A stretch of 4,417 bases of DNA from a virus (Duplodnaviria > Heunggongvirae > Uroviricota > Caudoviricetes): IMG/VR virus record IMGVR_UViG_2529292873_000012. The stretch is one strand, 5' to 3'. The notes below the pieces were generated by a model. The model was given only the letters and a program-made list of their open reading frames with translations, was not told the origin of the DNA and did no database searches. Position numbers and translations under genes: made by a program. Positions 1 to 4,417 of the stretch are shown piece after piece (the first letter of the stretch is position 1; every line of letters begins with the position of its first letter).

Positions 1-2
1 CG

Positions 3-326
3 CGCTATGCCATTGATGCTCCTGCTGACGCGCCTGATGGCTCAAGCCGCCCCACGCTGTCACTGAGTGCACTGCTGAAGCAGTATGGTATCCGCCTGAC
101 AGCTAATCAGGCATATCACCAGATGGCGAAGCTGGGGATCGTTGAACAACGTGAACGATACAGCCGCACTGCGATTAACAACATCAAAAAATTCTGGTCG
201 CTGACGGCGAAAGGCTGCATGTTCGGCAAGAACATCACCAGTCCCGCAAATCCGCGCGAGACGCAGCCGCATTTCTTCGAATCCCGGTTCCCTGAGCTGT
301 TAAAGCTGCTCGATACCGTTCATTGA
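3..326 (+). CDS. Phage protein, 5'-truncated by the window edge; C-terminal part resembles antirepressor/KilA-C-type domains (tentative)
   Basis: Frame +3 is open from position 3 to TGA at 324-326, with no ATG/GTG/TTG before the ATG at 123. The residues upstream of 123 (…LSLSALLKQYGIRLTANQAYHQ|MAKLGIV…) read as one continuous helical segment, so the gene probably starts left of the window; ATG 123 has only a weak SD. The stop overlaps the next gene's start region. Confidence 0.5.
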   Translation, partial: RYAIDAPADAPDGSSRPTLSLSALLKQYGIRLTANQAYHQMAKLGIVEQRERYSRTAINNIKKFWSLTAKGCMFGKNITSPANPRETQPHFFESRFPELLKLLDTVH

Positions 327-327
327 G

Positions 328-1322
328 GTGACCGTGAGAGCGCTACTGACCCCTGAAATTGCCCCGCGTATGGGGATCGTCTTGTTCAGACCCGGTTCAG
401 AGCTGATGCCCCTGTTTATGCAGGGGCGTGTCCTGCTGGAGCCTGAGCCGGAACGTTATTCATCTTTCGCCAGTGGTGCCGTTCCGGCAGCATCACAACC
501 GCTGGCGGATGATCCTGCCGTTCGGGCCGTGTTCCGCCATGAGGCGGTGATCCGTCGTGCTGGTGGCGTGGAATGCCTTGAGAGCTGGTTACTTCGTGAA
601 AAAGGCTGCCAGTGGCCTCATTCCGGATGGCACAGCGAGAACATGACCACAATGCGACACGCGCCGGGCGCAATCCGTCTGTGCTGGCACTGCGATAACC
701 TGCTTCGCGATCAGTTCACGGAACGTCTGGAGTCAATGGCAACGGATAACTGTGCCCGCTGGGTGTTGTCCGTAGTCCGTCGTGATCTCGGTTTTGATGA
801 CAGTCACGTTGTGACAATGCCTGAACTGTGCTGGTGGCTGGTTCGTAATGACCTGGCGGATGCCTTACCGGAAAGTGCAGCCCGTAAGGCCCTGAGATTA
901 CCGAAGCCTGTTGTGCCGTCTGTCACCCGGGAGAGTGACCTTGTGCCTTCGGTTCCTGCCACCAGCATTATCCAGGATAAAGCGAAAAAGGTGCTGGCGC
1001 TGAAAGTGGATCCGGAGTCGCCGGAGTCTTTTATGTTACGCCCAAACGTCGCCGCTGGGTTAATGAAAAGTACACGCGCTGGGTTAAGACACAGCCGTGT
1101 GCATGTTGTGGAAAGCCCGCTGATGATCCCCACCACCTGATAGGCCACGGTCAGTGTGGAATGGGTACAAAAGCGCATGACCTTTTTGTGTTGCCTTTGT
1201 GCAGAAAGCATCACGACGAGCTGCATGCGGATACCGTGGCATTTGAAGAGAAGTATGGCTCCCAACTGGAGCTGATATTTCGTTTTATCGATCGCGCGCT
1301 GGCAATTGGCGTACTGGCGTAA
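328..1322 (+). pseudogene. ydfU: YdfU/DUF968-family prophage protein, disrupted: body in frame +1 (328..1140), conserved C-terminal Cys/His motif in frame +3 (981..1322)
   Basis: Frame +1 ORF of 270 aa (CWHCDN motif) ends at TGA 1138-1140. Frame +3, open from 981 after TAA 978-980, encodes …FYVTPKRRRWVNEKYTRWVKTQPCACCGKPADDPHHLIGHGQCGMGTKAHDLFVLPLCRKHHDELHADTVAFEEKYGSQLELIFRFIDRALAIGVLA* ending at TAA 1320-1322, 13 nt before the Q start. The two frames overlap between 981 and 1140. Start is ambiguous (GTG 328, GTG 334 with GAGG at 325-328, or ATG 370). Confidence 0.55.
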
Positions 1323-1335
1323 GTGGAGAACGAGC

Positions 1336-2088
1336 ATGAACCTTGAAGCCTTACCGAAATATTACTCCCCGAAATCTCCAAAACTGAGCGATGACGCACC
1401 GGCGACAGGCTCTGGTGGTTTAACAATTACGGATGTGATGGCTGCGCAGGGGATGGTGCAGTCAAAAGCACCGCTTGGGTTTGCTTTATTCCTGGCAAAA
1501 GTTGGTGTTCAGGATCCTCAGTTTGCGATTGAAGGTCTGCTCAATTACGCGATGGCACTGGATAACCCGACATTGAATAAATTGAGTGAAGAAACCCGGC
1601 TACAGATCATTCCTTACCTTGTGAATTTTGCCTTTGCTGATTGTTCCAGGTCTGCGGCAAGTAAGGCTCGCTGTGAGCATTGTGCTGGTACTGGATTTCA
1701 TAATGTATTGCGCGAGGTGGTGAAACACTCCAGAAGCGGGGAATCTGTTATTAAGGAAGAGTGGGTGAAGGAACTATGTCAGCATTGTCATGGTAAGGGA
1801 GAAGTCAGCACAGCATGCAGAGGGTGCAAGGGTAAAGGTATTGTCCTGGATGAAAAAAGAACCCGGCTTCATGGCACGCCTGTTTATAAGGTTTGTGGGC
1901 GTTGCAATGGAAACCGGTTTAGCCGTTTACCAACCACACTGGCGCGGCTTCATGTCCAGAAGCTGGTACCAGACCTGACGGATTATCAGTGGTACAAAGG
2001 ATATGCAGATGTCATTGATAAACTGGTTACAAAGTGCTGGCAGGAAGAAGCATATGCAGAGATACAATTGAGAAAGGTGACAAGATAA
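1336..2088 (+). CDS. quuQ: Late-gene antitermination protein Q (QuuQ-like), 250 aa
   Basis: ATG at 1336 preceded by GGAG at 1325-1328 with a 7-nt spacer; the protein begins MNLEALPKYYSPKSPKLSDD and carries four CxxC pairs (CEHC, CQHC, CRGC, CGRC); stop TAA 2086-2088. Followed immediately by a pR'-like promoter and terminator. The ORF-track start at 1306 lacks an RBS. Confidence 0.85.
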   Translation: MNLEALPKYYSPKSPKLSDDAPATGSGGLTITDVMAAQGMVQSKAPLGFALFLAKVGVQDPQFAIEGLLNYAMALDNPTLNKLSEETRLQIIPYLVNFAFADCSRSAASKARCEHCAGTGFHNVLREVVKHSRSGESVIKEEWVKELCQHCHGKGEVSTACRGCKGKGIVLDEKRTRLHGTPVYKVCGRCNGNRFSRLPTTLARLHVQKLVPDLTDYQWYKGYADVIDKLVTKCWQEEAYAEIQLRKVTR

Positions 2089-2221: not shown

Positions 2222-2509
2222 TTTAAATGGGGCAATGGTAATGTTGAATCTCATCCCGGGACTCATGTCTGTTAACTTATTATTTAGCTGGTGACTTGGT
2301 TATTTGCCTGATGTTTAAAATGTTTTCTTCCAGTACAATGTCCCTAAACACAATGAGTCTGCTTATTATATTATTAGCAGAGCTATTACGGCCAAAGTAC
2401 AGCATAAGCTTTTAAAGCCAATCAACCAGTCATCAAGACAGACGGGGTTATTCATAAAAACTCTCCATGTGTGATCCGATGGGGCCTGAAATTAAAGCTT
2501 TAATATAGC

Positions 2510-2722
2510 TCATGAAAGGTAAACATTGGCAGCTGAAGGGCCACGCAGACCATTTATCCGGCAAAATTCCACGCGTAATCCGGTGGTAATTTCTTCTGCA
2601 TCGCGGAGATTGAGCGCTGAAACATGAAGCTGGACATCGATACGACCATCGGATGGGGTGATAAGACCCTTGCCGCTTTTGCCGTCAAAGGTTTTGACAA
2701 TTCCTGTCATTTTACGGGACAA
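2510..2722 (-). CDS. cspF: Cold-shock-like protein, CspF/CspH subfamily, 70 aa
   Basis: Translation [27 protein letters not shown]…[21 protein letters not shown] matches the CspF/CspH subfamily from memory. Divergent from the cspB-like gene as in Qin. Predicted start is TTG (2720-2722 on +) with AAGGA 7 nt upstream; an in-frame ATG lies 4 codons downstream. Stop TGA. Confidence 0.85.
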
Positions 2723-2826
2723 AAAAATTCCTTAATACTGATAACTTGGCGCACTATACACACGTTCCTGAAGAAAGCTATAGTTTTTTGATGGGGTTGA
2801 AGATGGCTGGATGTCTAAAATAAACA

Positions 2827-2861
2827 TTGCTTCATATGTTCAACTATGCGTTAATGATTGC
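2827..2861 (+). promoter_or_regulatory. cspB-like promoter (CspA-type, extended -10)
   Basis: -35 TTGCTT (2827-2832), 17-nt spacer, TGcGTTAAT extended -10 (2847-2855), comparable to cspA TTGCAT / TGgCTTAAT. Predicted start near 2862 gives a leader of about 161 nt. Confidence 0.5.
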
Positions 2862-3022
2862 GTCGGTTTGAAGAACAGACGATATACGAAGTAGTTTACT
2901 AAAGCAGTTCTCATTTCAGGTGTTATTCACTTATTCCTTCTTTGAGTCTCTCCAATTAAGTACGAAGTCGTTTCTGTTATGCAAACCATTTATGCCGAAA
3001 GGCTCAAGTTAAGGAATGTAGA
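2862..3022 (+). promoter_or_regulatory. Long cspB 5' leader with cold-box-like and upstream-box elements
   Basis: GGTTTGAAGAACAGAC (2866-2881) resembles the cspA cold box GGTTTGACGTACAGAC; AAAGCAGT is conserved; the GCCGAAAGGC upstream box (2995-3004) precedes the AAGGA SD (3011-3015). Confidence 0.6.
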
Positions 3023-3238
3023 ATGTCAAATAAAATGACTGGTTTAGTAAAATGGTTTAACGCTGATAAAGGTTTCGGCTTTATTTCTCCTGTTGATGGT
3101 AGTAAAGATGTGTTTGTGCATTTTTCTGCGATTCAGAATGATAATTATCGAACCTTATTTGAAGGTCAAAAGGTTACCTTCTCTATAGAGAGTGGTGCTA
3201 AAGGTCCTGCAGCAGCAAATGTCATCATTACTGATTAA
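3023..3238 (+). CDS. cspB: Major cold-shock protein CspB-like, 71 aa
   Basis: [71 protein letters not shown] carries the RNP1/RNP2 motifs (KGFGFI, VFVHF); AAGGA SD 7 nt upstream; stop TAA 3236-3238. Confidence 0.9.
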
Positions 3239-3518
3239 AATTCATCGCTCGTCTGTATACGATAACGAAGAAGGCTGATGCCTGAGTAGAGATACGGACA
3301 GAGTAGTGAATATTGGATCTCTTTAATAAAAAATAAGGAGGTCCAATACATGAAACAATGGCTAGCATATTTGGCAAAATCTTAATCAGGAAAAGTATGC
3401 TAACCATTGTGGTGAAGTGCAGGTTTGCTGCATGAATAGTTTTACAGCAGAAGCTAACTGCTGGCATGGCAAAACAAAGTGCGTAAGTGGATGACTCCCA
3501 CAAAAAGCACCACAATCT

Positions 3519-3545
3519 CAAACCCGCTCAGGCGGGTTTTTTATT
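3519..3545. terminator. Rho-independent terminator (strong on +, weaker on -) between cspB-like and the zinc-ribbon gene
   Basis: Stem CCCGC (3523-3527) / GCGGG (3532-3536), loop TCAG, then TTTTTTATTAT; preceded by CAAA. Nearly identical in stem and 3' context to the terminator at 2196-2221. Confidence 0.7.
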
Positions 3546-3601
3546 ATCTGCTTTAAATATATTATTAAAATATAAAAAATACTTGTTACTAATAAAATCA
3601 A

Positions 3602-3772
3602 TCAGGCTACAGCTTTAAGATTTGTCTGGAATACTTTGTTGCAATGAGGGCAGATCAAAAGGGCACCTTTTTGTACTCTTGAAAAACTGTGTTCTGACTC
3701 TTGGGTGCAGTTTGGGCAGGAACATTTAACGAGATAATTACGGCGTGATTTTGAGTTTTTACGTTCTGACAT
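3602..3772 (-). CDS. ynfU: Small zinc-ribbon protein (YnfU-like), 56 aa
   Basis: MSERKNSKSRRNYLVKCSCPNCTQESEHSFSRVQKGALLICPHCNKVFQTNLKAVA has two CxxC pairs. The ATG at 3770-3772 (- strand) has AGGA 7 nt upstream; the longer track ORF starting at 3823 has no SD. The symbol is from recollection of a 56-aa zinc-binding protein in Qin and is tentative. Confidence 0.55.
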   Translation of the reverse strand: MSERKNSKSRRNYLVKCSCPNCTQESEHSFSRVQKGALLICPHCNKVFQTNLKAVA

Positions 3773-3991
3773 AGGCTTTTCCTGTATAAATGGCCGTATA
3801 CAGTACACTAAATATGAAAACATTTCTCGTATTATTATTTTATATATGACTTTCTTTCAAAATAATTACCCACATTTTTAATGTGTATGTTTTTTTAGCG
3901 CCGTTGAGAACAACGTGTGCTGTCAAAACTACCCCGTAGACTCCGATCTTTTCAAACATATTGCACCATCCGTGTACATCGGGGTGAGGAT

Positions 3992-4207
3992 ATGAAATCA
4001 ATGGATAAGTTAACAACAGGTGTTGCCTATGGCACATCGGCGGGTAATGCTGGTTTCTGGGCATTGCAGTTACTCGATAAAGTAACTCCGTCACAGTGGG
4101 CTGCAATCGGTGTGCTGGGTAGCCTGGTTTTTGGCCTGCTGACGTATCTGACAAATCTTTATTTCAAGATTAAAGAAGACAGGCGTAAGGCTGCGAGAGG
4201 AGAGTAA
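3992..4207 (+). CDS. essQ: Class II holin / pinholin, phage 21 S-like, dual-start motif, 71 aa
   Basis: [71 protein letters not shown] is very close to phage 21 S21 as I recall it. GAGGA SD at 3986-3990; two in-frame starts (ATG 3992 and ATG 4001, Met1 and Met4); stop TAA 4205-4207. The track ORF from 3917 is an unsupported N-terminal extension. Confidence 0.85.
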
Positions 4208-4211
4208 TCCA

Positions 4212-4417
4212 ATGACTCAAGACTATGAACTGGTTGTGAAAGGAGTCCGTAATTTTGAGAATAAAGTTACGGTAACTGTAGCCTTACAGGACAAAGAACG
4301 CTTTGACGGTGAAATTTTTGACCTGGATGTCGCCATGGACCGTGTTGAAGGAGCTGCGCTGGAGTTTTATGAGGCAGCAGCCAGAAGGAGCGTCGGCAAG
4401 TCTCCTGGAAGTAGCAG
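4212..4417 (+). CDS. ydfR: DUF1327/YdfR-like prophage protein, 3'-truncated by the window edge
   Basis: ATG 4212 with AGGAG SD (4197-4201) straddling the holin stop; open frame to the window end encoding MTQDYELVVKGVRNFENKVTVTVALQDKERFDGEIFDLDVAMDRVEGAALEFYEAAARRSVGKSPGSS. Sits directly after the holin, as ydfR does after essQ in Qin. Confidence 0.7.
   Translation, partial: MTQDYELVVKGVRNFENKVTVTVALQDKERFDGEIFDLDVAMDRVEGAALEFYEAAARRSVGKSPGSS

Follow-up and report, generated by a model that had tools for sequence, protein, structure and literature searches.

The DNA analysed here (4,417 nucleotides [nt]; "the window" throughout) belongs to IMG/VR virus record IMGVR_UViG_2529292873_000012 and is part of a Qin-like lambdoid prophage. 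Its DUF968/YdfU-family gene, as written, is not one continuous open reading frame (ORF); it is broken at codon 238, where a single A is lost from a short run. Gene names in the window were taken from Pfam and from the annotation of homologous Escherichia coli loci. The gene and the features at its break, all on the plus strand, are as follows.

334-1322, plus strand: DUF968/YdfU-family gene, whole, split at codon 238
334-1044, plus strand: codons 1-237 in the correct frame (+1), from Pfam, PHROG, and 97-98% nt identity to intact 990-nt genes
1012-1029, plus strand: 9-bp tandem duplication CCGGAGTCG/CCGGAGTCT, encoding PES-PES, unchanged in intact homologues
1029-1032, plus strand: run of four T (T4), intact in the window, the site of a T4-to-T3 frameshift in other E. 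coli strains
1041-1047, plus strand: C_CCA_AAC, a -1 slippery heptamer of the X_XXY_YYZ type in the 0 frame, created by the deletion (from the sequence)
1044-1046, plus strand: the lesion, A3 where every intact relative has A4, at codon 238 (AAA, Lys; from the alignments)
1045-1140, plus strand: out-of-frame tail of 31 codons (NVAAGLMKSTRAGLRHSRVHVVESPLMIPTT), then TGA at 1138-1140 (from the sequence)
1047-1322, plus strand: codons 239-329 and the stop codon TAA, now in frame +3 (Pfam, PHROG)

The frame +1 ORF runs from GTG at 334, the annotated start of RefSeq homologues, or from an alternative GTG at 328, to the TGA at 1138-1140, which is followed by TAG at 1141-1143. Frame +3, open from 981 (after TAA at 978-980) to TAA at 1320-1322, encodes ...PKRRRWVNEKYTRWVKTQPCACCGKPADDPHHLIGHG...LCRKHHDELH.... 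Against the Pfam DUF968 profile (PF06147; cut-off, 27.8 bits, with both halves scoring above it), the frame +1 product matched positions 2-84 (E = 7.5e-24) and frame +3 matched positions 84-171 (E = 2.4e-48). Against PHROG 96 ("HNH endonuclease," 334 positions), the corresponding matches were 1-243 (E = 2e-111) and 244-334 (E = 4e-55). Both matches of the frame +1 product stop at its residue 238-239. The two frames are, far beyond chance, contiguous halves of one DUF968/YdfU-family gene, as had been claimed in the initial annotation, which described a split gene with its Cys/His domain out of frame.

The product as written is 268 amino acids (aa) long, with 237 native and 31 out-of-frame residues; it keeps the N-terminal domains and is without the whole predicted C-terminal zinc-finger/His-Me-finger (HNH-like) module. 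Neither ATG, GTG, nor TTG occurs in frame +3 between 981 and 1161, which rules out the Cys/His domain as a separate gene. Only one ORF in that frame could be initiated independently; it is 53 aa long (1161-1322) and begins after the CxCC and HH motifs.

To place the break, the window was aligned with the intact 990-nt genes of E. coli O111:NM 14614, E2865, and ten further loci. Every alignment showed a single gap within the gene (CGCCCAAAACGTCGC in the intact copies, CGCCCAAACGTCGC in the window), which corresponds to one A lost from an A4 run (CGCCCAAAACGT in the intact copies, CCCAAAC in the window). The indel, placed at A3 1044-1046 by alignment to intact homologues, agrees with the shift of -1 or +2 within 981-1140 that had been proposed from the window alone. 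The slip sites proposed with it did not hold. An A5 run is present at 985-989 and the 9-bp repeat at 1012-1029, both as described, and the T4 run exists, albeit at 1029-1032 instead of 1028-1031; all three are unchanged in intact genes and are therefore not involved in the window's frameshift, the real site of which is the A run at 1044-1046. The repeat, singled out earlier for lying in the same zone as the break, plays no part in it. K238 itself falls within a stretch, FMLRPKRRRW, that is invariant in 23 intact homologues (compared residue by residue, down to ~69% identity), as are P227, E228, P230, E231, and S232 of the PES-PES region.

With one A added, the gene becomes a 990-nt, 329-aa ORF of the same length as the intact genes, it aligns with intact 329-aa genes free of gaps, and the restored protein and K-12 YdfU align over their full lengths (E = 4e-143). 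Its closest known counterparts are 329-aa proteins of E. coli lambdoid/Shiga toxin (Stx)-type prophages (WP_100030281.1 in O111:NM 14614 and WP_001428967.1 in E2865), which are 97-98% identical at the nt level over the whole gene, have the length of the window gene after the A is restored, and have the same neighbours (KilA-N upstream, Q downstream); these genes carry A4 and a continuous ORF, whereas the window carries A3 and a split ORF. K-12 YdfU (b1560, NP_416078; cryptic prophage Qin), itself intact at 349 aa, is colinear with the restored protein and nearly identical to it over the C-terminal ~100 residues, and the genes downstream of it in Qin are those of the window (ydfT/Q, cspF, cspB, ynfU, essQ, and ydfR). 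Overall identity is only 56%, because K-12 YdfU has a different N-terminal allele and a linker longer by 20 aa. Matches to 80% or more of the gene's length were present in 2,363 complete E. coli genomes, and all 13 full-length annotated or called copies that were read out are a single 329-aa gene. The opposite arrangement, raised in the initial annotation, of homologues that end at the equivalent of 1140 and are followed by a separate Cys/His gene was not seen among the intact homologues, which are single 329-aa ORFs.

The module cut off by the break is well conserved. Every residue of the C-terminal motif CxCC...HH...C..HH...H is present in frame +3 of the window, and C256, C258, C259, H267, H268, C290, H293, H294, and H298 show little or no variation among the 23 homologues. 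The module matched Pfam HNHc_6 (E = 7e-7; 29.4 bits, cut-off 26.6 bits) and, weakly, YbcO of prophage DLP12 (DUF1364; PDB 3g27; E = 0.023, residues 255-311), a 96-residue single domain, whereas YdfU-type proteins have ~240 extra N-terminal residues. DUF968 has been grouped with DUF1364/YbcO in group 7 of the His-Me finger superfamily (PMC5714182), and an N-terminal DNA-binding part joined to a zinc-finger HNH motif has been described for DUF968 proteins (PMC4118853). The intact protein is a predicted nuclease, and none of the papers found in a literature search describes a biochemical test of YdfU-type proteins. An AlphaFold model of an intact homologue (P0016; mean predicted local distance difference test [pLDDT], 64), used for domain layout only, is confident in a core (residues 55-185), disordered in a linker (194-243), and moderately confident in the C-terminal module (250-320); on this layout, the window's break lies where the linker ends. 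Foldseek of the model against the PDB gave no significant match, with weak recurring matches to Cap5 and Cas5-HNH.

The A3 allele is private to the window, save for one error-ridden metagenome contig. A search of 5,426 complete E. coli genomes for the exact 70-mer 1011-1080 found it at none of 3,221 homologous places, each of which carries the extra A, and the exact 29-mer across the A3 site was absent from GTDB representative genomes and IMG/VR. The truncated products (268 and 270 aa) were not recorded in the assembly collection. The sole exact match to the 29-mer was the metagenome contig (L011), which is 94.9% identical to the window with 6 gapped positions in this gene, and in which the neighbouring ORFs are fragmented too. 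L011 is an error-rich contig, and the same miscall therefore does arise as an artefact; its low identity and many gaps rule it out as the source of the window.

Nor has the gene decayed around the lesion. In the restored frame, none of the five substitutions private to the window's copy changes an amino acid, and 2 of them lie downstream of the break; the downstream part differs from the closest copies there, E2865 (L002) and L003, by 3 synonymous and 0 non-synonymous changes; and the pairwise ratio of non-synonymous to synonymous polymorphism (pN/pS) is 0-0.14 throughout. With no decay after it, the break is either very recent or an artefact.

An indel error in the source assembly (a homopolymer under-call) is the most likely explanation, with a genuine recent mutation a close second. 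If the former is right, as we think it probably is, the source assembly under-calls A4 as A3, and the organism would keep an intact 329-codon gene. Taken as written instead, the gene would have the ribosome read 31 codons out of frame after codon 237 and stop at 1138-1140, and the C-terminal His-Me-finger module could not be initiated on its own. The 3' end of the window bears on this choice. There, within the last 25 nt, ydfR is one base short of K-12 at two points (CC has become C after 4393, and TT has become T after 4402), and these deletions would also frameshift ydfR. In complete E. coli genomes, 4,363 places were compared with the last 88 nt of the window, and none was an exact match; the 3'-end pattern had no match in GTDB representatives or IMG/VR. 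Indel error is suggested by three private one-base contractions of short runs accompanied by almost no private substitutions. An indel-to-substitution ratio of 2:1 (the ydfR end set against 2250-4390) is typical of sequencing error and not of evolution. In addition, the end of the window coincides exactly with the point where prophage alleles diverge, as in a repeat-bounded draft contig, and three other copies disrupted by one-base changes (L022, L027, and L028) sit in assemblies with fragmented neighbouring genes. With three private one-base deletions in 4.4 kb, the IMG/VR record is worth flagging for possible indel errors.

Several observations weigh against an assembly error. The run, at A4, is short, and the interior of a contig is usually called accurately. 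Q, cspF, cspB, ynfU, and essQ, the five other complete genes of the window, are intact, and the ydfR deletions, clustered as they are in the last 25 nt, may reflect nothing more than an end effect. The gene is, moreover, commonly inactivated for real (T4 to T3 in at least 2-3 independent runs, a Shigella-type copy, an insertion sequence [IS], and nonsense codons).

The runner-up is a genuine and recent slipped-strand loss of one A, somewhat less probable than an assembly error but a serious contender. It would leave a pseudogene with at most a 268-aa product, a neutral outcome since the gene is dispensable to the host. The lesion lies mid-window, far from either end and among intact neighbouring genes, and the gene has been broken repeatedly in nature by other lesions. 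What speaks against a mutation is that A3 is in no other genome searched, that no damage has accumulated downstream of the break, and that the two further private one-base deletions in so short a sequence suggest indel errors in the record. The earlier ranking, which put decay or sequencing error ahead of programmed frameshifting, fits this evidence. Other broken copies of the gene are listed below (in L021-L030, the gene lies at ~4172-5162 in each).

P0002 cluster (24 distinct 268-aa proteins): T4 to T3 at the run equivalent to 1029-1032, confirmed in DNA from GCA_005399085.1, DRR159843, and SRR30170617 (L015-L017)
P0082 (26 blocks): one-base deletion at gene position 574, adjoining an LRR-NEL gene (ipaH-like E3 ligase) in a Shigella-type context
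L008: nonsense at codon 120
L021: nonsense at codon 254
L023: IS3-family insertion
L025, L026, L029, and L030: other one-base indels
L022, L027, and L028: several indels each, in visibly noisy assemblies

The T4-to-T3 allele (GCJ14347.1 of E. coli BvCmsA139A; P0002) is the nearest parallel to the window's: it too is a one-base deletion in a short run, and it leads into the same wrong frame, to the TGA, a 268-aa product, and the orphan 53-aa ORF. At L015:4690-4718, where it was read, the product has the tail LCYAQNVAAG... and the same stop as in the window. It differs in that its site is 15 nt upstream of the window's lesion and that it is present in several independent assemblies, whereas the window's A3 is found nowhere else reliably. 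P0002 was considered as a possible second instance of the window's allele and rejected, the lesion being T4 to T3. The T4 run named in the initial annotation is thus a genuine frameshift site elsewhere in E. coli, and not in the window. One-base deletions in this gene share the wrong frame and the TGA, so that unrelated lesions yield 268-aa products.

Copies with the deletion at gene position 574 (L018:4001-4807, L019, and L020) are divergent DUF968 genes (~79% nt identity); since this deletion recurs in 26 blocks of the assembly collection, the copy is a lineage-fixed pseudogene, in a prophage remnant that looks Shigella-type. Gene calls for the orphan 53-aa ORF (window 1161-1322) are present in 332 blocks of the collection and stem from differing lesions. 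A one-base frameshift in a dispensable prophage gene is a routine and already known kind of event, and with many independently broken copies of the same gene in public assemblies, the biological weight of the window's break is small. Its value is for annotation: both ORFs, the orphan 53-aa ORF, and a 177-aa antisense ORF are to be read as one frameshifted DUF968 gene.

A real deletion might also be rescued in translation, by a -1 slip on C_CCA_AAC, in either a leaky pseudogene or a programmed site; we regard this as very unlikely. The heptamer is canonical and in the right phase, and a slip on it resumes at CGT 1047 in the ancestral frame, giving a full-length protein with K238N. It shares the X_XXY_YYZ form in the 0 frame with the -1 sites of dnaX and IS911/IS3; those sites are of the A_AAA_AAG type, conserved, and equipped with a Shine-Dalgarno-like element and a hairpin or pseudoknot as stimulators, whereas the window's C_CCA_AAC is unique and has no stimulator. 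In E. coli reporters, CCCAAAC on its own gave -1 frameshifting of 0.179%, over a background of 0.055%; the rate was 0.149% when the IS911 stimulators were present and reached only 0.488% with the strong IS3 pseudoknot (PMC4066793, Table S3), and bacterial ribosomes tolerate re-pairing from AAC to AAA poorly (PMC4066793). Downstream, the RNA at 1048-1140 (93 nt; -26.1 kcal/mol, z = -0.43) showed no stimulatory structure, folding no better than shuffled sequences (57 of 200 fold as well). Upstream, a GGAG at 1023-1026, 14 nt before the heptamer, could be counted in favour of rescue, but it belongs to the conserved PES-PES coding repeat and is carried by intact genes. The flanks as a whole do not differ from those of genes in which no shift is needed, and therefore nothing in them was selected for frameshifting. 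In complete E. coli genomes, the C_CCA_AAC arrangement is missing from every one of the 3,221 homologous copies, as it is from GTDB representatives and IMG/VR, and K238, which a slip would replace, is invariant in the 23 homologues. The private changes downstream of the break are all synonymous, as rescue would have it, with n = 2 and no statistical power. Programmed or efficient -1 frameshifting was rejected on these grounds (a motif that is poor in E. coli, no downstream structure, and no conservation). A leaky pseudogene, in which, at the reporter rates above, at most ~0.2% of ribosomes would slip by -1 and make a full-length K238N YdfU-type protein, is scarcely more than a theoretical prospect. 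If true, it would be a natural indel partly corrected by the slippery sequence that it generated, and it would matter only if a trace amount were biologically sufficient or were boosted by an unrecognised stimulator.

The least credible reading takes the split for two functional genes, or for a phase-variation switch that run length turns on and off: gene callers do call the 53-aa ORF in such broken copies, but this ORF starts past the CxCC and HH motifs and so cannot form the finger, frame +3 offers no earlier start codon, the full-length copies (13 of 13) are single 329-aa genes, and the tract is only A3 or A4, where contingency loci need tracts of ~7 or more for useful slippage and runs of 3-4 fall far below.

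The DUF968/YdfU gene occupies a ninR-like region, between the KilA-N gene and the Q antiterminator. The remaining genes of the window are as follows.

1-326, plus strand: KilA-N-domain gene, 3' end, running off the window (annotation of homologous loci)
1336-2088, plus strand: late-gene antiterminator Q (ydfT/quuQ type), intact (Pfam Antiterm, E = 3e-51)
2510-2722, minus strand: cspF, intact
3023-3238, plus strand: cspB, intact
3602-3772, minus strand: ynfU, intact
3992-4207, plus strand: essQ holin, intact
4212-4417, plus strand: ydfR, 5' part, with the two private one-base deletions

The exact Q protein of the window is recorded in 347 blocks of the assembly collection. The window is a mosaic with sharp boundaries at 1006 and ~2250: from ~2250 to 4390 it differs from Qin of K-12 MG1655 by one substitution in ~2.1 kb, from 1006 to 2250 it is ~9.5% divergent from K-12, and 5' of 1006 it consists of a different module, whose nearest relatives (97-98%) are prophages of O111, O26, and O145 strains. 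Among complete E. coli genomes, no match to the whole window exceeded ~96%, and the best in the phage collection was 95.7%.

On the minus strand, an antisense ORF at 804-1337 reaches 177-178 aa in the window, compared with a maximum of 113-115 aa in intact genes. It was considered as a gene and rejected as a by-product, the A deletion having fused two antisense frames.

The intact family, a conserved and uncharacterised, predicted two-module zinc/His-Me-finger protein beside Q in lambdoid phages, merits study itself, and to its function the window adds nothing. In the model of the intact homologue P0016, the core (residues 55-185, window ~496-888; no Pfam match) contains a beta-hairpin (104-117) followed by a helix (118-124), with invariant C92, H96, H100, C117, and C120. 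Lying upstream of the annotated DUF968 region, this core may hold a second zinc-binding element of beta-beta-alpha-like form, as judged from the model. A further homologue, P0001 (406 aa; NCBI assembly), has an in-frame internal tandem duplication of ~77 residues, with LIRNDLADALPES...PKRRRWVN occurring twice; the duplication covers the linker and the site equivalent to the window's lesion.

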